DNA of 64,000 nucleotides from an uncultured Solirubrobacterales bacterium (GTDB taxonomy: Bacteria > Actinomycetota > Thermoleophilia > Solirubrobacterales > JBBDJG01). The stretch covers positions 152,462-216,461 of the forward strand of contig OY970293.1 in assembly GCA_963716195.1 (NCBI GenBank), written 5' to 3'. The notes under the pieces are model-generated. The model saw only the letters and a program-made list of their open reading frames with translations. It did not search any database and had not been told where the DNA came from. The translations under genes and the position numbers were made by a program. Positions 9,362 through 59,338 of the stretch are shown here, in pieces; the stretch's first letter is position 1; each line of letters begins with the position of its first letter.

Positions 9362-9414
9362 TGAATTCCTACCTCCACGGTCAGGATAACAGTGGCGGTA
9401 CCTGGGGACTCCTT

Positions 9415-9688
9415 GGACGGGCACCGAAGGGGGGTGATCCAGGGCGCTCGGCTGGCGACCTAAGTGGGACGAAGCGCAGACGCTGTCGTGCCGGTTTGCA
9501 CGCTTAGCCAGCTTTACGACTTCTTCGTAACACCCCGAATCGTTGCGTGATGAGTTGGGGTGGCTATAGGGACATCAACTCATCACAGAACAAGGGCCCC
9601 CTCACAAATCGGCCATTTTCCACCACTCACGTACGCAAGTCGTGAGCTTCCGCAAACGCTCGTCACGGTCGCCTTTCGATGCCCGTCC
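9415..9688 (+). repeat. Copy A of an intergenic inverted-arm element family (long form, 274 nt)
   Basis: 5' arm GGACGGGCACCGAAGGGGGGTGATCC, 3' arm CGCCTTTCGATGCCCGTCC, central hairpin GTGATGAGTTG...CAACTCATCAC at 9547-9586. Shares blocks GCGCTCGGCTG, GTGCCGGTT, CGTAACACC and TTCCGCAAA with copy D. Lies 53 nt from the rrf2 start. Confidence 0.7.
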
Positions 9689-9733
9689 TTCGGGGGCAGC
9701 GAAACGCGGCGAAATGGCAAAGCTCCGCGCCGC

Positions 9734-10390
9734 CTAGCTCCGCTCCCGCAACAACTCCCGCAGGTCATGCCCGAGCGCCTCGGGCGTGAGGAAGTCGATC
9801 GGGAATCCGACGCGCTGGCGGCCCTCGCGGTCTATCAGGACCACCCACGAGTTGTGCTCGACCCTCTCCGTTTGTGGCGAAAAGCCGTAAGCGCGCCACA
9901 CCGGCCGTAGCTCGTCGCGGGACCCGACCAGGAAGTCCATGTAGCCGCGCACCCGCTGCTCGAGCAGGAACGAGCGGGCGCTGTCAGCGCTGTCGTGTGC
10001 CGGGTCCACGCTCAGCGCAAGCGCCTTCACCTGCTCGCGCTTCCCGTCCGGCAACTCACCGAGCACGTCGCGTATCTGCTGGGCGATCAGCGGGCACGAG
10101 TCCTGGCAGGTCGTGTACATCGGCGCGAGCACCACGACCCGTCCGCGCAGCGCCCGCAGTGAGACCACGTCGCCGTCCTGGTCGGGCAGGGTGAAATCCC
10201 GTGGCGGGGTCTCGGGTCGGACCGCGCCCTTGAACTGCGACGTGGCGCCTTGAACCCCGTCCACCTCGGTCACCTGTGCGGCGGCGCCGTCGTTGCCGTC
10301 ATCGGAGCGGGCGGCGAGCGTGGCGGCGATCGCGCCGCCGAGCGCCATCACGGCGACCACGAGCAGCACCAGTTGCGCCCTTGAGAGCAC
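9734..10390 (-). CDS. SCO1/SenC-family copper chaperone (thioredoxin fold), membrane-anchored
   Basis: 218-aa ORF with an N-terminal TM helix and FTLPDQDGDVVSLRALRGRVVVLAPMYTTCQDSCPLIAQQI (CxxxC of the SCO family). Confidence 0.85.
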   Translation of the reverse strand: MLSRAQLVLLVVAVMALGGAIAATLAARSDDGNDGAAAQVTEVDGVQGATSQFKGAVRPETPPRDFTLPDQDGDVVSLRALRGRVVVLAPMYTTCQDSCPLIAQQIRDVLGELPDGKREQVKALALSVDPAHDSADSARSFLLEQRVRGYMDFLVGSRDELRPVWRAYGFSPQTERVEHNSWVVLIDREGRQRVGFPIDFLTPEALGHDLRELLRERS

Positions 10391-11047: not shown

Positions 11048-12018
11048 TGCAGCGGCACCTCGAGCCGCACCGTCGTGCCCTTGCCGGGCCGGGAGTCCAC
11101 TTCGAGCCTGCCGTTCACGAGCAGCGCGCGCTCGCGCATGCCCGAGAGCCCGAGGCCCTTCGTTTCGTCTGCGAACGTGAATCCCTTGCCGTCGTCGACG
11201 ACCCGCAGGACGACGTGCGAGTTGGCCCGGCCGAGGCTGACGCCGATGTTGCTCGCCTGGCTGTGGCGAGCGGCATTGGTGAGCGCCTCCTGCGCGACTC
11301 GGTAGATCACCAGCTCGACGTCCTGCGGCAGTCCATCGAGGTCCTGGTCGAGCTCGAGCCGGGCGTGTGCCGTTCCGCGGCGGTCGTAGTGACGGACCTG
11401 GGTTGCCAGCGCCGCCTTCAGCCCATGGTCGTCGAGGGCCGCGGGGCGGAGCTGGCGGGCGAGGTCGAGGAGCTCGACCATCGCGCGGTTGGCCAGCTGC
11501 TTGGTCTGGTCGAGCTCGGCTCTCAGCTCCGGGGGGGCGTGCTGCGCCGCCGCCTCGAGGCGCAGAAGCAGCGCCGTCAGCGCCTGGTTGACCTCGTCGT
11601 GGAGGTCGCGCGCGACGCGCTTTCTCTCCTCCTCTTGCGCGCTCAGCGCAAGCTCGCCCGAACGCCGGCGTTCTTTCTCGAGCCGGTCGAGCATGCGGTT
11701 GAACGCGGCGGCCAGGCGCTGGATGTCCGTCGTTCCTCCGGTGACCGCCTCGTCCAGCTCCACGCGCCGGCCGGGTTGGGAGAGGTCGATCCGCTCCATG
11801 GTGTCGAGCACGCGCTCCAGGGGCTCGAACCGGCGCCGCAGGAGCCAGATGTTGACCACCAGGGTCAGGAGCAGGGCCAGGGCAAGGACGAGGAACTGCC
11901 GGCGCTGGCCGGCGAGCGTCAGGTCGAGGCCGGCCGCCATGCTGGCCACGAAGATCGCCGTGGCCACGAGCAGCAGGTTGAAGGCCAGTATCTGACCGAG
12001 CAGGGAAGGGCGTCTCAT
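11044..12018 (-). CDS. Sensor histidine kinase (HisKA_3 / NarX-DesK type)
   Basis: 324-aa ORF with N-terminal TM segments, H-box RVARDLHDEVNQALTAL, and an HATPase C-terminus (DDGKGF...GLGLSGMRERA). Overlaps the regulator start by 4 nt. Confidence 0.85.
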   Translation of the reverse strand: MRRPSLLGQILAFNLLLVATAIFVASMAAGLDLTLAGQRRQFLVLALALLLTLVVNIWLLRRRFEPLERVLDTMERIDLSQPGRRVELDEAVTGGTTDIQRLAAAFNRMLDRLEKERRRSGELALSAQEEERKRVARDLHDEVNQALTALLLRLEAAAQHAPPELRAELDQTKQLANRAMVELLDLARQLRPAALDDHGLKAALATQVRHYDRRGTAHARLELDQDLDGLPQDVELVIYRVAQEALTNAARHSQASNIGVSLGRANSHVVLRVVDDGKGFTFADETKGLGLSGMRERALLVNGRLEVDSRPGKGTTVRLEVPLQ

Positions 12019-13160: not shown

Positions 13161-13988
13161 GTGCCGATGAGCGTGTATCTCGCGGCCTGCGCCATCTACC
13201 GGGACGAGGCGCACTACCTGCCCGAGTGGATCGAGTTTCACCGCCTGCTCGGAGTCGAGCGGTTTTTCCTGTACGACAACTTCAGCGAGGACGACCACCT
13301 GCGCGCACTGCGGCCGTACGTCCGCCAGGGCGTCGTCCATCCGCAGGACTGGCCGCTCTTCGGCGATCAGCAGCGCAGAGCGTACGACCACTGCCTCGGG
13401 GAGCATCGCGACGAGGCGCGCTGGATCGCGTTCATCGACCTCGACGAGTTCCTGTTCTCGCCCGGTGGCCGGCCGCTGCCCGAGCTGCTCGCCGAGTACG
13501 AGGACGCCCCGGGGGTGTGCGTGGCGCGGCGCGAGTACATGATGTCCGGCCACCAGACCCGCCCTGAAGGGCTCGTGATCGAGAACTACGTGCGGGCGCG
13601 GATCCTGCGCCCCGACCGCGCCGTCCCGTTCAAGAGCATCGTCGATCCGAGCCGCGCGAATCACTGCCTGAACTCCCACAACTTCGCCTACCGCGACAGC
13701 GCCCTGCCCGTGGACGAGAAGGGAGAGGTCATGAAGCCGCCCTGGCGCACCAGGGCTGTGCCCTGCGAGCGGCTGCGGGTCAACCACTACTTCACGAAGT
13801 CCGCCGAGGAGGCCAAGAGCAAGCTGGCTACCCTCGACGCTCGCGGCCTGCCGCGCCCGCTCGAGATGCCGGAGGACTTTGACAGGTGGGTCCGGGCCGA
13901 GCCCGACCTCACCTATGAGGACGACGTGCTCGTCTCCTATGGCCCAGCTGTGCGGGCCGCCCTGGAGCGGTCCAGTACCGCTTGCTAG
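13161..13988 (+). CDS. Glycosyltransferase family 92-like protein (paralogue 1)
   Basis: MSVYLAACAIYRDEAHYLPEWIEFHRLLGVERFFLYDNFSEDD...IAFIDLDEFLF matches my recollection of bacterial GT92/DUF23 proteins. Clear paralogue of 43889-44680. Confidence 0.65.
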   Translation: MPMSVYLAACAIYRDEAHYLPEWIEFHRLLGVERFFLYDNFSEDDHLRALRPYVRQGVVHPQDWPLFGDQQRRAYDHCLGEHRDEARWIAFIDLDEFLFSPGGRPLPELLAEYEDAPGVCVARREYMMSGHQTRPEGLVIENYVRARILRPDRAVPFKSIVDPSRANHCLNSHNFAYRDSALPVDEKGEVMKPPWRTRAVPCERLRVNHYFTKSAEEAKSKLATLDARGLPRPLEMPEDFDRWVRAEPDLTYEDDVLVSYGPAVRAALERSSTAC

Positions 13989-15551: not shown

Positions 15552-15595
15552 TTCCGGGTTTTGCTTAGGCGCAAAACCGGGAGCTCCGAGGGCTC
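15552..15595. repeat. 44-nt hairpin repeat, copy 1 (immediately after the cysO stop)
   Basis: TTCCGGGTTTTGCTTAGGCGCAAAACCGGGAGCTCCGAGGGCTC. Nearly identical to 56536-56580. Confidence 0.65.
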
Positions 15596-23712: not shown

Positions 23713-23787
23713 TTGGTCGTGAGGCTAACTGTGGAGGGCATGTAGTCGTGGTTGGGCCAGACCCCGTTGACGTCGCGCCACAGGCAG

Positions 23788-24057
23788 GACAGGCATCGAA
23801 GGGGGGTGAGACGGATCTATGCCGAAGCTCGCGACATGCATGAACAAGCGGCATGAGTTGACCGATCCTTGAGGTCCACTTCTTTTGTGATGAGTTGACC
23901 GGGCTATAGCCCCATCAACTCATCACATAGGGATCGGGTGCGTTACGCGAATGTCGTAAAGATCGCTAAGCGCACCAACCGCCACAGCTTCCGCGGTGTC
24001 GCGTTTCACTTGGGTCATCAGCCGTATCGCTCCGGATCACCCCCTTCGATGCCAGTC
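23788..24057 (-). repeat. Copy B of the inverted-arm element family (long form, 270 nt, reverse orientation relative to A)
   Basis: Plus strand: GACAGGCATCGAAGGGGGGTGAGACGG ... CCGGATCACCCCCTTCGATGCCAGTC. Central hairpin GTGATGAGTTG-ACCGGGCTATAGCCCCAT-CAACTCATCAC at 23887-23926. The reverse complement aligns block by block with copy A. Lies 75 nt from the hyuA start. Confidence 0.7.
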
Positions 24058-24099
24058 CCAAAAAGACCCCCCGCACGACTCCGGAGAAAATCAACCCCA

Positions 24100-24138
24100 A
24101 CCCACAAAAGCGAAGCGACCCCCAATCTCGGGGGTCGC
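24100..24138 (-). terminator. Intrinsic terminator of the 24231-24683 gene
   Basis: GCGACCCCC-(6 nt)-GGGGGTCGC, a 9-bp GC stem at 24115-24138. On the minus strand it is followed by TTCGCTTTTGTGGG. Confidence 0.6.
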
Positions 24139-24230
24139 CTCTGTGCGGAGGGGGTCTCTCTTGTACTTCCCGCTTGAAGCGGGTCCGGGGCGGTTGTCAG
24201 ACAACCGCCACCGGCACGAAGTGATCGGCT

Positions 24231-24683
24231 CTACGCGGCCAGCTCGATCCCTTCGAGCTCGTCGAAGCTCTCTCTCAGATGTTGATGGGACGGGCAGTAC
24301 TCGCTCCGCGCGAGCGGCGGGCGCTGACAGGGCTGGCCCTTGCGCGTCATGGCCTGGCACTGGCGCTGCGTTCCGGCCGGGTCGAGGTGCTCCTCGGGCA
24401 CCATCTCGAGCATCGCGAGGGCCGTGTCGATGTGACGCTTGACGATCGTGTAGACGTGCAGCTGCGAGCAGAGCGAGAAGTAGATCCTGATCTCGTTGAA
24501 GAGCGACCGTTCGGGCCGCGCGAAGTGACGCCGGTCGCGCACCAGGCGCTCCATCGTGCGCTCGCAACCCTGCAGCACTCGCAGGCGGTTGCTCTCGCCC
24601 TGGTTCCGGCGGTCGTTCAGGATCAGGGGCGCGAGCTCACGATAGATCGCACGGCTGAAATGGTTCTTGAGCAGGTCTCCCAC
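24231..24683 (-). CDS. Hypothetical protein with C-terminal Cys/His cluster
   Basis: 150-aa ORF. The GTG start is preceded by GAGGAGAGAG. C-terminal CQAMTRKGQPCQRPPLARSEYCPSHQH (C-x9-C-x11-C-x2-H). No family recognised. Confidence 0.6.
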   Translation of the reverse strand: MGDLLKNHFSRAIYRELAPLILNDRRNQGESNRLRVLQGCERTMERLVRDRRHFARPERSLFNEIRIYFSLCSQLHVYTIVKRHIDTALAMLEMVPEEHLDPAGTQRQCQAMTRKGQPCQRPPLARSEYCPSHQHLRESFDELEGIELAA

Positions 24684-28669: not shown

Positions 28670-28832
28670 AGGCCTAATACGGGTTCTCCGCACGCACGGA
28701 TGACGCGCGGATACCTTCGCTGGATCGCGCCGTCGGGACTTGCCCATGCCCACCGGCATGGGCTTCGCCCGCCGACCACGCCCAGCTCGGTCCCGCGCGG
28801 CCCCGCACGCACGGGCAACCCACATCAACCCT

Positions 28833-37219: not shown

Positions 37220-37257
37220 CGCCGTCCTCAGCGGCGAAACCGCATGGAAGGACGAAC

Positions 37258-37465
37258 TGCTGCATCGAAGGAGGGAGACTTTGGTGTGAGTTTCAGGACG
37301 GTTGACGCCGGATCCGCGATAGGGGCCGCCGAAGGGTGCGGGATTTCCCTCCCATAGGGTGGCTAACTGCGTAAGCGACCGGAGCCCTATCGCAGCAATG
37401 CATCGTTCGACGCGACGGGCTCCCAAAAGGCCGACCTCCGGGCACCATCCCTTAGGTGCCTCGTC
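37258..37465 (+). repeat. Copy C1 of the inverted-arm element family (short form, about 208 nt)
   Basis: 5' CTGCATCGAAGGAGGGAGAC ... 3' GGCACCATCCCTTAGGTGCCTCGTC. Internal block TGCATCGTTCGACGCGACGGGCTCCCAAAA is shared with C2. Lacks the central hairpin of the long form. Confidence 0.6.
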
Positions 37466-37497
37466 AATAGCGCGAAGCCACGCCTAGGGACTAACAG

Positions 37498-37703
37498 CTG
37501 CATCGAAAGAGGGAGCCTTCTGCGTCAGTCTCGGGACGACCGAAGTGGAGCGCATGACGGCCCCCGAAGTGCATGCAAGATTTGGCCCCTCTAGGCGGCA
37601 TAAAAGCGACAGCAACCGGCGGGCTATTACGAGAGTGCATCGTTTAACGCGACGGGCTCGCAAAAATCAAACGCCCGCACACCACCCCTTTCGATGCCCC
37701 GTC
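37498..37703 (+). repeat. Copy C2 of the inverted-arm element family (short form, 206 nt), tandem to C1
   Basis: 5' CTGCATCGAAAGAGGGAGCC ... 3' CACACCACCCCTTTCGATGCCCCGTC. Block TGCATCGTTTAACGCGACGGGCTCGCAAAA. Lies 68 nt from the LysM-gene ATG. Confidence 0.65.
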
Positions 37704-37771
37704 AAAAGAACGAAACCGGATCGCGGCATTCGCGCGCCACGGACCCGCCCGTACCGCCGGACACGACCACT

Positions 37772-43667: not shown

Positions 43668-43796
43668 CGCCGCCGCGCTGACAGAGCGGGCGCCTAGTGG
43701 TCCTTCTCGGAACGTTCGCCAGGAAACGGCGAGGTTCCGGGGCCGACAGGCAAGGATCTCGCGCTACGCGCTCGCACGGCGCCTTACGGCGCCTAA

Positions 43797-43822
43797 GCCC
43801 CCGTACTGGTCAGTACGGGGGC
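43797..43822. terminator. Stem-loop between convergent guaA and GT92 genes (possible bidirectional terminator)
   Basis: GCCCCCGTACT-GGTC-AGTACGGGGGC, an 11-bp perfect stem. There is no clear T-tract on either side. Confidence 0.4.
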
Positions 43823-43888
43823 GACTGAGGACGCCGCATGTCGGTTCCGGAAGCCGTCGTTTCCGGTGAAACGCTTCGGGAAGGGCCA

Positions 43889-44680
43889 CTAGCGTCGCGC
43901 GAGTGCCTCGCGCAGCGCCGGCAGGTAGGTGAGGATCGCCTCGTCGGGGCGGCTGTTCTCTTGATCGCGAATACGCATCCGCCTTCTGGTTCGCCCCGGT
44001 GGGTAGGGCTCGCCCGTGTCGGGTCGGAGGCGGGCGAACTTGGCCTCCAGCTCTTCCTCGGACTTCGTCCAGTAGTGATTGATGCGCAGCCGCTCGGCGG
44101 TGAAGCTCTGCGCCTTTGCGGGCAGCGAGACGGGCCGGTGGAGCTCGTCGACGGTGTCGCCGTCGGTTCTGAACAGGTGCGGATTGATGGGGCGCTCGGC
44201 CCTTTCGGGGTTGACGATGCTCTTCACGAAGTGGGCCTGGACATGCGCGGTGAGGACGCGCCGGTAGCTCTCCACGACAAGACCGGGTGGCTTCGTGACG
44301 TGCCCCGACGTCCCGAAGAAGAGCCGGCAGGCCCCGACGGCGGGCCACTGCTCGTACTCGGTGAGGAGCTCGGGAAGCGGCTGCCCCAGGGGAGAGAACA
44401 GGAACTCGTCGGTATCGATGAAGGCGATCCAGCGCGCGTCTTTCCGGTGCTGCTGGAGACAGTCGCCATAGGCCGGTATCTGCGGAGCCGCTCCGGGCCA
44501 TTCGTGCAGCACGACGGTGCCCTCGGCGCAGTAGGGCGCGAGCAACTCACGCTGGACCTCACGGTCGCCGTTGTTGTAGAGGAAGAAGCGCTTGGCCCCC
44601 ACGAGGCGATGGAACTCGATCCATTCGGCCAGGTAGGGAGCGTCGTAACCGAGGCAGGCGCAGACAGCAAGGTCGACCAT
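43889..44680 (-). CDS. Glycosyltransferase family 92-like protein (paralogue 2)
   Basis: MVDLAVCACLGYDAPYLAEWIEFHRLVGAKRFFLYNNGDRE...IAFIDTDEFLFSP...LRINHYWTKSEEE. Colinear with 13161-13988. Confidence 0.65.
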   Translation of the reverse strand: MVDLAVCACLGYDAPYLAEWIEFHRLVGAKRFFLYNNGDREVQRELLAPYCAEGTVVLHEWPGAAPQIPAYGDCLQQHRKDARWIAFIDTDEFLFSPLGQPLPELLTEYEQWPAVGACRLFFGTSGHVTKPPGLVVESYRRVLTAHVQAHFVKSIVNPERAERPINPHLFRTDGDTVDELHRPVSLPAKAQSFTAERLRINHYWTKSEEELEAKFARLRPDTGEPYPPGRTRRRMRIRDQENSRPDEAILTYLPALREALARR

Positions 44681-50161: not shown

Positions 50162-50188
50162 CGACTGTGGGTCGCGGCCCATCTCCGG

Positions 50189-50462
50189 GATGGGCATCGA
50201 GGGAGGGTGTGTCATTGCGCTCGGCTGACGAGCTGAGTTGGACGAGACACCGACGGGGTTGTGCCGGTTCTTCCGCCTAGCGACCGTTCGCGACATCCGC
50301 GTAACACCGCCCATCATCGAGTGAACACTTGGAGGACCCACAGGCCCCTCAACTGTTCAGTCGACAGGTGGCCCCTCACAGGTGGGTCAACATCTTTCAT
50401 TCAGGTGCGCGACTTGCGAGGTTCCGCAAAACTATCGTCACAATCCCCTTCGATGCCCGCCC
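50189..50462 (+). repeat. Copy D of the inverted-arm element family (long form, 274 nt)
   Basis: 5' GATGGGCATCGAGGGAGGGTGTGTC ... 3' GTCACAATCCCCTTCGATGCCCGCC. Variant central hairpin GTGAACACTTG...CAACTGTTCAG at 50321-50360. Lies 52 nt from the nnr GTG start. Confidence 0.7.
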
Positions 50463-50514
50463 TTCCGCGGCGCGTCGAGCCAAGGGATCGACCGGTTCTA
50501 GTACCGTCGCGCGC

Positions 50515-52086
50515 GTGAGCGCGCTCCATCCCTGGCTCAGCCCTCTCTATACGGCGGAAGAGATGCGGGCCATCGACCGGTGGGCGATCGAGGAGCGTGG
50601 CATTCCGTCGCTGGAGTTGATGGAGAGCGCGGGTACCGGTGTGGCCGACGCGGTTTCCGACCTCGAGCCCAACGGGCCGGTCCGGATCGTGTGTGGCAAG
50701 GGAAACAACGGGGGCGACGGCTTGGTTGCGGCCCGCAGGCTTGCCGAGCAAGGCCTCGAGACGGACACGCTGATGCTGTGGGGTCCCGACGAGCTGAGTC
50801 CGGACGCCCGCGCGAACCATGATCGCCTGGCTTCGTCCGGCGGCACGGCGCGCGTGATCGAGGCCGGCGACTTGCCTGGGGCATTGGCCGGTTCCGGTGT
50901 GGTCGTCGACGCCCTGCTCGGAACCGGTTTCACCGGAAAGCCGCGCCCGCCGCTCGACGCTGCGATCGAGGCGATCAACGGCTGCGCCGCTCCGGTCGTG
51001 GCGGTCGACGTACCGTCCGGCGTCGATGCCTCCACCGGTGAGGTCGAGGGCGCCTGCGTGGACGCCGATCTGACGGTCACCTTCCATGCGGCGAAGCTCG
51101 GCCTCTGGGTGCTCCCGGGCAAGGAGCGAGCGGGTCACGTCGAGGTGATCGACATCGGGATCCCCGATGAGGACGGCGGACCGCTCAGCGGTTTCACCGC
51201 CGGCTTGATCCAGCCGCAGGTGCTCGACCTCGTCCCGCCCCGCGGCATCGGATCCACGAAGTTCAGCTCTGGCTCCGTGCTCGTTATCGGGGGGTCCCGA
51301 GGTCTCACGGGCGCACCGTGCATGGCGTCCGAGGCGGCGATGCGCGCCGGCGCCGGCTGGGTGCGGGCGGCAGTGCCCGGGTCGCTCGAGCCGATCTTCG
51401 AGCAGAAGCTCACCGAGGCCATGACCGTCGCCTTGCCCGATGAGAACGGCTCGCTCACCGCGGCGGCGGAGGAGCAGGTGCTCGAGGCCGTCGAGCGGGC
51501 GGATGCCGTGGCACTCGGGCCCGGCTTCGGCCGCGCGAAGCCCGCGCTCGCCCTTGCTCGCGCGCTCGCCGCGGAGATCCAGGCGCCGCTTCTGATCGAC
51601 GCCGATGGTCTCAACGCGCTGGGGAAGGACGGGCTGGAGACGCTCCGCGACAGGGACTGCGGGGCGGTGCTGACGCCGCACGCGGGTGAGCTGGCACGGC
51701 TGCTCGGCGTCGAATCGCGTGAGGTGGCCGCACACCGGCTGCGCAGCGCGTGCGCAGCCGCCGCGCGGGCGGACACCACGGTCGTGCTCAAGGGCGACGA
51801 TTCGCTGATCGTGGATGGAGAGCGCACGCCGATCGCGGTCAGCCCGGGCGGAAGCCCGGCTCTGGCGACGGCGGGCACGGGCGACGTTCTGTCTGGAGTG
51901 ATCGCGGCCTTTCTGTCCAAGGGGCTGCCGGAGTTCGAGGCTGCCTGCGCGGGCGTATACGCGCACTCGCAGGCGGGCTGGATCGCCGGCGCGGAGTTCG
52001 GCGTTGACTCCGTGATCGCATCGGACGTGATTGCGGCCGTGCCCGCCGCCTTGCGCCGCCCGGCCGAGCCGGCCGGCTCACCATGA
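50515..52086 (+). CDS. nnr: Bifunctional NAD(P)H-hydrate repair enzyme (epimerase / ADP-dependent dehydratase)
   Basis: GTG 50515: VSALHPWLSPLYTAEEMRAIDRWAIEE.GIPS..LME.AG; CGKGNNGGDG; C-terminal carbohydrate-kinase domain (GTGDVLSG). The track ORF start at 50329 reads through repeat D and is rejected. Confidence 0.85.
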   Translation: MSALHPWLSPLYTAEEMRAIDRWAIEERGIPSLELMESAGTGVADAVSDLEPNGPVRIVCGKGNNGGDGLVAARRLAEQGLETDTLMLWGPDELSPDARANHDRLASSGGTARVIEAGDLPGALAGSGVVVDALLGTGFTGKPRPPLDAAIEAINGCAAPVVAVDVPSGVDASTGEVEGACVDADLTVTFHAAKLGLWVLPGKERAGHVEVIDIGIPDEDGGPLSGFTAGLIQPQVLDLVPPRGIGSTKFSSGSVLVIGGSRGLTGAPCMASEAAMRAGAGWVRAAVPGSLEPIFEQKLTEAMTVALPDENGSLTAAAEEQVLEAVERADAVALGPGFGRAKPALALARALAAEIQAPLLIDADGLNALGKDGLETLRDRDCGAVLTPHAGELARLLGVESREVAAHRLRSACAAAARADTTVVLKGDDSLIVDGERTPIAVSPGGSPALATAGTGDVLSGVIAAFLSKGLPEFEAACAGVYAHSQAGWIAGAEFGVDSVIASDVIAAVPAALRRPAEPAGSP

Positions 52087-59209: not shown

Positions 59210-59244
59210 GGCCGGAATCCCGGGCCGTCGGCCGAGCCGTCCGA

Positions 59245-59335
59245 GCGCCGATCATCGGCTGAACACTTAGGTACCCCAGAGGGTCCTCAACTGTTCAGCC
59301 GGCAAGTGGCTCCTGACTGATCGGCCATCTTGCGC
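59245..59335 (+). repeat. Partial copy E of the inverted-arm element family (central hairpin plus part of the 3' domain)
   Basis: GATCATCGGCTGAACACTTAGG...CCTCAACTGTTCAG (hairpin 59259-59298) parallels D 50312-50360. GATCGGCCATCTTGCGCC parallels A AATCGGCCATTTTCCACC. No terminal arms are visible. Confidence 0.45.
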
Positions 59336-59338
59336 CGG

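Follow-up and report, generated by a model that had tools for sequence, protein, structure and literature searches.

The window, i.e. the complete 64-kb stretch of DNA analyzed here (G+C content of 68.5%), contains six loci of a family of palindromic repeats that lie in the spacers between genes (Table 1). Copies A, B and D are full long forms, C1 and C2 are short forms arranged in tandem, and E is an internal fragment. The rrf2 gene in the neighborhood of copy A is adjoined by sufC. Copy A is antisense to its adjacent gene, whereas B, C and D are in the sense orientation. Annotation of the neighboring genes with Pfam confirms that all copies are intergenic, and the adjacent genes (rrf2/suf, hyuA, the LysM protein gene and nnr) are functionally unrelated. 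The copies occupy spacers only and stay >50 nt from start codons; the four distances to a start codon (Table 1) agree with the 52–75 nt given in the preliminary description of this DNA.

Table 1. Positions of the repeat copies, their parts and other features of the window
Feature	Position	Strand	Length	Description
Copy A	9415-9688	+	274 nt	Full long form; nhmmer E=3e-88; between the stop of SCO1/SenC (9734, minus) and the start of rrf2 (9361, minus); antisense to rrf2, 53 nt from its start codon
5′ inverted arm of A	9415-9437	+		GGACGGGCACCGAAGGGGGGTGA
3′ arm of A	9665-9688			Partner of the 5′ arm
Central hairpin of A	9547-9587			GTGATGAGTTG...CAACTCATCAC; from the repeat search
3′ extension of A	9689-9706			Equivalent of the extension of D
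ORF across A	9560-9910			Artefact of copy A
Copy B	23787-24058	-	272 nt	Full long form; nhmmer E=1e-85; 74 nt ahead of hyuA (minus, start 23712) and after the terminator of a 150-aa gene
Central hairpin of B	23887-23927
3′ extension of B	23769-23786			Equivalent of the extension of D
ORF across B	23996-24442			Artefact of copy B
Tandem unit 1 (C1)	37234-37471		238 nt	In the spacer between pyrF and the LysM gene
C1	37258-37465	+		Short form; 5′ arm as in the long forms, 3′ arm degenerate, interior unrelated
Tandem unit 2 (C2)	37472-37709		238 nt	In the same spacer as unit 1
C2	37498-37703	+		Short form with two arms; 66 nt upstream of the LysM gene (start 37770)
Copy D	50188-50462	+	275 nt	Full long form; nhmmer E=7e-85; in the spacer between acpS (stop 50161) and nnr (GTG 50515), 52 nt from the nnr start codon
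Central hairpin of D	50321-50361
3′ extension past the arm of D	50463-50480	+		Consensus TTCNCGTGGCGCGACGAG; from the alignment with flanks
nnr ORF as called in the window	50329-52086		585 aa	N-terminus extended into D
Fragment E	59213-59336	+	124 nt	Internal fragment without arms; central hairpin domain, D-type; between two convergent genes
Central hairpin of E	about 59259-59299
First classical MITE	28670-28832		163 nt	Between convergent genes
Second classical MITE	43698-43888		191 nt	Between guaA and a Glyco_transf_92 gene; CTAG at 43694-43697 and 43889-43892
Hairpin repeat of 45 nt	15552-15595			TTCCGGTTTTTGCTTAGGCGCAAAAACCGGGAGCTCCGAGGGCTC
Inverted similarity	13179-13835 / 44027-44671			Spans genes 13161-13988 (+) and 43889-44680 (-)

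Copies, arms and element ends

An nhmmer profile made from the three long forms finds A at 9411-9694 (+), B at 24062-23781 (-) and D at 50184-50467 (+) in the window, with E-values of ~1e-85. These copies are homologous from end to end, with pairwise identities of 63–69%; by region, identity is 70–87% in the arms and 50–72% in the central hairpin. The preliminary description, which had listed them as full copies, estimated their identity at 60–70% and allowed for old copies rather than a recent burst, is borne out on all three points. Fragment E is matched at 59247-59337 (nhmmer E=3e-11 to 4e-22; 87 bits with the covariance model) and is 76% identical to D across 82 nt. C1 and C2 are 67% identical to each other and represent two units of an old tandem; they share with A, B and D the arms alone (~20 nt, nhmmer E=0.1–0.7). 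Arm-to-arm lengths are 272–275 nt in the long forms and 206–208 nt in C1 and C2. Thus, the initial count of five full copies and one partial copy holds for A, B and D as full copies and for E as the partial one, but not for the two short forms.

No conserved ORF runs through the copies in any frame, which upholds the earlier judgment that the ORFs crossing them are non-coding. Gene callers have extended the N-terminus of nnr into D or its remnant to different degrees (539 aa in JGI and 523 aa in NCBI, compared to the 585-aa ORF of the window), and we attribute these spurious extensions to element D. On the reading favored below, the repeat family would be useful for annotation, since it explains two spurious ORFs, over copies A and B, as well as the extension of nnr.

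Each long copy is closed by arms of ~20 nt with the consensus GGAC.GGCATCGARGG.GGGTG / CAC.CCCTTCGATGCC.GTCC. Inverted arms are found in A, B, D and C2, and the proposal that the two ends are closed by pairing of these arms is sustained for A, B and D. The arm motif GCAYCGARRGRGG occurs at 11 sites in the window, compared to 2.5 ± 1.6 expected, and 9 of the 11 are at element ends. The two-arm pattern gives 6 matches in the window against 0 expected, and only A, B and D are matched.

Similarity between copies extends outside the arms, by ~18 nt at the 3′ end and, less clearly, by ~12 nt at the 5′ end. The homology past the 3′ arm suggests that the arms may be subterminal. The insertion at the D site, read from the alignment with the related contig L051, is ~320 nt, as expected if the unit reaches somewhat past the arms. 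No regular direct repeat is present beside A, B or D; the flanks share only 2-nt matches (TT, TG and CC), which is the level of chance, and we therefore see no convincing target-site duplication at these copies. The flanks of fragment E show, at best, an imperfect GCCGG. The copies are old enough for a short target duplication to have been erased by mutation.

Predicted fold and substitution pattern

The long copies are imperfect palindromes of ~275 nt, predicted to fold into a rod that is closed by the arms and carries a left-hand branch and a central hairpin. The fold z-scores of the three long copies are -3.5, -4.0 and -7.8, with copy A at -114 kcal/mol (z=-3.5) and copy B at z=-7.8. B is the most palindromic of the copies, as its reverse strand matches the entire profile (E=2e-10).

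Covariation was assessed on an alignment of A, B, the orthologue of B in the related contig L062, D and E, with shuffled and slid partners as controls. In this alignment, 88% of the cells assigned to pairs are paired, and helix 1, formed by the arms, is 93% paired. Sixteen pairs are changed on both sides, compared to 9.3 ± 2.0 with shuffled and 2–5 with slid partners. The central hairpin (helix 8) accounts for 10 of these 16 double changes, which affect 10 of its 21 pairs; its sequence differs between A/B and D/E, and is complementary in each. The excess of double changes over the controls, mostly in the central hairpin, implies that the structure was maintained while the family diversified.

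This signal is symmetric between the strands. Minimum free energies for sense and antisense are -113/-118, -133/-133 and -118/-115 kcal/mol for the three long copies, the alifold energy is -74 for the antisense compared to -69 for the sense strand, and pairs predicted on both strands comprise 9 G-U and 6 A-C cells. Thus, neither folding energies nor the counts of G-U versus A-C cells reveal a strand preference, which fits a palindrome at the level of DNA and not an RNA made from one strand.

A direct view of evolution in place is provided by copy B and its full orthologue in L062, which are 84% identical (44 of 275 alignment columns are changed). This 16% difference compares with 17.2% at the fourfold-degenerate sites of the adjacent hyuA; the flanking spacer is ~71% identical. 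Substitutions affect 12% of paired versus 21% of unpaired positions (p=0.05–0.09). Most changed pairs are broken (20 of 25 in the fold of B itself and 11 of 19 on the consensus of A, B and D), and 0–2 are compensatory. In this single comparison, substitutions affect 7 of ~97 positions in the arms and central hairpin compared to ~21% elsewhere, so that these parts might have some function; the rate of the arms summed over the orthologues of B, C and D, counted from the alignments, is roughly neutral. Judged from A, B and D, one complete orthologue and some fragments, the inserted copies as a whole show no detectable purifying selection. The suggestion that the copies might be constrained, with its implication of a functional RNA, thus finds no support here, since the B orthologue drifts at the synonymous rate and its stem pairs are mostly broken. 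Slow change, compensatory replacement and strand-specific wobble pairs, as expected of a functional structured RNA, are not the pattern of these copies.

Occurrence in relatives and in sequence collections

Contigs of relatives were retrieved via hyuA, nnr, infA and a GerE-type regulator. They fall into a close group (92–96% nucleotide identity, from about ten JGI samples) and a distant group (73–84%). The nearest named Nnr homologues, at 62–63% amino acid identity, are from Solirubrobacterales-like Actinomycetota MAGs. Copies or remnants are present only in contigs that are 92–96% identical to the window (L005, L050, L059/L065, L062–L064, L066, L068 and L069). The distant contigs (L006, L048, L049, L051–L058, L060 and L061; ~220 kb at 73–84%) contain no copy detectable by nhmmer or the covariance model, compared to ~20 copies expected at the density of the window. 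A covariance model of the central domain, run over 420,806 bases, returned known copies only. The nhmmer check for spread proposed in the preliminary description thus limits the family to genomes with ≥92% identity to the window. Since orthologues are found in independent metagenome contigs, an assembly artefact was rejected.

The individual sites differ in how much of the element is left. B has a full orthologue at 9648-9922 of L062 (nhmmer E=3e-70) and one cut by the contig end at 1-162 of L005. The B site is empty in L006 (82% amino acid identity), L048 and L049, where the spacer measures 170–254 nt compared to 518 nt in the window, and these spacers keep the upstream terminator and the ribosome-binding region. 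At 80–84% nucleotide identity, neither the B nor the D site contains an element; in L051 (84%), the upstream stop is only 33 nt from nnr. At the D site of L050, L059/L065, L063 and L064, only the last ~55 nt and the 3′ flank are left, as 259 nt of the window are replaced by 23 nt in the contigs of four relatives. The tandem of C1 and C2 is present in L065, L066, L068 and L069. There, C1 has a 53-nt internal deletion and an intact 3′ arm, whereas C1 of the window lost its 3′ arm by substitution; C2 of the relatives lacks ~69 nt of its 3′ end, including the arm. Fragment E is absent from L050 and L059, in which the flanks join directly and two stop codons are 6 nt apart. E thus reflects indel turnover and not transposition dependent on terminal inverted repeats. 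These losses again speak against the notion of constrained copies, which are cut or lost in relatives of 93–95% identity and absent from more distant ones.

Searches of sequence collections returned no relative of the family. The whole window has zero matches in Rfam 15 at the gathering threshold, and permissive Rfam searches of A, B, C and D gave matches at the level of chance only (E≥0.0085). The cmscan comparison with Rfam suggested earlier therefore has no significant match, and the view that the repeats belong to no known Rfam family is confirmed. Sensitive BLASTN against plasmid and phage collections found no match. Two-arm exact-pattern scans produced 4 matches in GTDB genomes, 28 in JGI metagenome contigs and 13 in IMG/VR viral contigs, none of which is homologous by nhmmer. 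L020 and L025 were considered as homologues because their inverted repeats go well past the pattern, but were rejected, as each is a long and almost perfect palindrome in which the 12-mer is present by symmetry. Two viral contigs of IMG/VR (L039 at 141-419 and L043 at 11189-11467) carry several closely spaced, iteron-like 17-mers resembling GGGGCATCGAAGGGGCT. These have the 12-nt core of the arms and nothing else in common with them, and the likeness is probably a coincidence.

The window was also inspected for genes and signals that could accompany the repeats. No transposase is present among the scanned neighbors in the window, as stated in the preliminary description, and in particular no tnpA, tnpB, IS110 or RAYT-like gene; synteny with relatives across 17–61.6 kb reveals no IS-sized insert. 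No consensus of a sigma-70-type promoter or intrinsic terminator was found inside the copies, and a built-in promoter or terminator was rejected on that ground. Rfam detects no tRNA or rRNA gene within the 64 kb. A retron msr/msd was rejected in view of the several copies and the lack of a reverse transcriptase, a known large RNA or ribozyme because Rfam has no match, and a small-protein gene because no ORF is conserved.

Nature of the repeats and other elements of the window

The family is real and non-coding; it is undescribed in the databases searched and ordinary in kind. Bacterial MITEs are usually <200 bp and at most ~400 bp long, have terminal inverted repeats and no transposase or coding capacity, are flanked by direct repeats, and can form a long stem-loop (PMC3184786). 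The copies described here resemble them in size (272–275 nt) and in having no conserved ORF, and also in being multiple, dispersed, intergenic and variably present among relatives (PMC3184786). We therefore favor, as the probable reading, a lineage-specific family of non-autonomous, MITE-like palindromic DNA repeats that is now decaying. The term MITE-like is chosen because there is no target duplication and no partner transposase, and because the arms are possibly subterminal. The preliminary description had named a decaying MITE as the outcome that would speak against a functional RNA. Absence from relatives, deletion and neutral drift support this outcome, but clean target duplications are missing and the covariation in the central hairpin is real.

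Several characterized MITEs, i.e. Correia/NEMIS of Neisseria, Nezha of cyanobacteria, MaeMITE and Chunjie, offer a close parallel, as they are likewise non-coding, 100–400 bp long, multicopy and intergenic, with inverted repeats at the ends, a single long stem-loop and a lineage-restricted distribution. The family studied here differs from them in having no demonstrable target duplication, in its subterminal arms and in the age of its copies (63–69% identity), and it has no sequence similarity to any searchable element.

The window itself contains two classical MITEs that are unrelated in sequence to the palindromic family and absent from relatives of 93–95% identity. The first is absent from L062 (93% nucleotide identity) and has an exact CTAG duplication (CAGCTAG[...]CTCTAG, followed by TAACG) and imperfect terminal inverted repeats of ~45 nt; its CTAG target presumably points to an IS5-type partner. 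The second, with terminal repeats of ~35 nt (TGGTCCTTCTCGGAACGTTCGCC...) and a folding energy of -138 kcal/mol, is missing in L063, L065 and L066; it occurs just once in the window and bears no relation to the first. Since both are polymorphic with respect to the same relatives, small non-autonomous elements are mobile in this genome. Their exposure by the same comparisons serves as a positive control for the method. They resemble the palindromic family in host genome, in location in spacers near stop codons, in size and in their strong fold. However, they have exact duplications and terminal repeats of 35–45 nt, whereas the palindromic family has no duplications, and copies B, C and D of that family are older and are shared in decayed form with the relatives of 93–95% identity, from which only E is absent.

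If the MITE-like reading is correct, the repeat would have entered or expanded in one species-level actinobacterial lineage, probably of Thermoleophilia or Solirubrobacterales-like affinity, after its split from the relatives of 84% identity. Insertion would be due to an enzyme whose gene lies elsewhere in the genome and which would recognize the arms and possibly, in single-stranded or cruciform DNA, the central hairpin as well. Covariation among the paralogues could then stem from a constraint that acted on the source copies during their propagation, or from the correction of quasi-palindromes with a hairpin as template, which is a known mutational mechanism, rather than from a function for the host. 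The gap of 52–74 nt to the start codons might have been left by purifying selection, because insertions into promoters or 5′ UTRs would have been lost. Once inserted, a copy would be neutral baggage that drifts and is then eroded by deletion.

The copies could instead be intergenic palindromes of the ERIC/REP kind, tolerated or used by the host and spread by recombination or another route with no dedicated transposase, an explanation we regard as unlikely. A long hairpin co-transcribed with its neighbors would then affect mRNA stability, read-through or binding of nucleoid proteins. ERIC/IRU of Enterobacteriaceae and bcr1 of the Bacillus cereus group are also imperfect palindromes with a central inverted repeat and indel size variants; they sit in transcribed spacers, and their mode of spread is unclear. 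Compared to ERIC, the family described here is about twice as large, from another phylum and presumably unrelated in sequence; copies of ERIC are conserved between genera, whereas the present family stays within genomes of at least 92% identity. REP/BIME and the REPINs associated with RAYT transposases resemble it as extragenic palindromes in which the hairpin matters for recognition, and they are propagated by a domesticated enzyme. However, REPs are G+C-rich palindromes of 20–40 nt and REPINs, as inverted doublets, measure ~70–110 nt, whereas the arms here enclose a branched interior of ~230 nt; at ~275 nt, with that interior and no RAYT-like gene among the scanned neighbors, the copies are unlike either. 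The strong folds predicted on both strands, the covariation of the hairpin, the lack of target duplications and the slower change of arms and hairpin in the B orthologue pair are all in keeping with palindromes of this kind, as is the location in short spacers between co-oriented genes, that between acpS and nnr being only 33 nt in L051. Against this, the overall rate equals the synonymous rate, the arms are roughly neutral when the orthologues of B, C and D are pooled, relatives have lost most of D and the 3′ arm of C2 and lack E while the neighboring genes are intact, and relatives manage without the elements at every site examined.

Relics of another structure-dependent element, i.e. a non-autonomous derivative of an HUH/Y1 (IS200/IS605-like) or IS110-like transposon, are a doubtful alternative. 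Elements of these types have subterminal hairpins, produce no target duplication and insert beside a preferred sequence; those of the IS200/IS605 type lack terminal inverted repeats and enter 3′ of a short motif. The subterminal inverted repeats of the long copies, the similar sequence just outside their arms and the missing duplications are compatible with such an origin, and a hairpin kept by compensatory change would suit structure-specific recognition. The similarity of the flanks is, however, drawn from three or four sequences, the ends of IS200/IS605 elements are separate local hairpins whereas the ends here pair as one long stem, and the window has no tnpA, tnpB or IS110 gene. Rfam, which should contain the IS605-orfB and HEARO motifs, gives no match.

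We give a similarly small chance to an undescribed type of mobile unit that depends on its structure, in which the central hairpin domain would be recognized for propagation as single-stranded DNA or as RNA. This domain has persisted through many compensatory changes, with its sequence identity down to 50–58%, and the armless 124-nt fragment E, absent from relatives of 94–95% identity, suggests that the central domain alone might move. If true, the family would represent a new class in Actinomycetota, non-autonomous, with subterminal arms and without target duplication, and a hairpin-dependent element of this sort would be moderately interesting for research on transposons.

A structured non-coding RNA made from one strand, either an sRNA gene or a cis-regulatory leader, is very improbable: compensatory changes above both controls in the central hairpin and other helices, z-scores of -3.5 to -7.8 and the sense orientation of three of the four loci at 52–74 nt from the downstream start are outweighed by the absence of an Rfam match, of strand asymmetry in energy or wobble pairs and of promoter or terminator consensus, by the antisense orientation of A to rrf2, by the unrelated downstream genes, by positions not conserved in orthologues beyond ~92% nucleotide identity, and by a neutral rate with mostly pair-breaking changes and large, tolerated deletions. 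A cis-regulatory leader or riboswitch, in particular, would have a fixed orientation, related genes and conservation in relatives, none of which is seen.

On the MITE-like reading, the window adds one undescribed family from a poorly studied, mostly uncultured actinobacterial lineage, which could help to type strains and to follow the turnover of spacers, and not a new regulatory RNA. Paralogue covariation above controls and strong fold z-scores are thus compatible with neutral evolution in place; comparison of orthologues, tests of strand symmetry and presence or absence in relatives separate an RNA from a palindromic repeat.

The same comparisons drew attention to other features of the window. 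The 45-nt hairpin repeat also occurs at 6447-6491 of L050 and 10221-10265 of L059. It follows infA in close relatives, and a second copy in the window is expected just downstream of infA (stop 56534). The spacer between infA and the amidase gene is ~220–236 nt in this lineage compared to 1–14 nt in L052, L056 and L058. The inverted similarity listed in Table 1 amounts to 74–79% over blocks of 70–123 nt; the orthologue of its second gene in relatives is Glyco_transf_92, and the two genes look like paralogues and not like a repeat element. Finally, the gene calls of relatives give L13 an extra 9 residues, and 3 residues of the protein are different in them.
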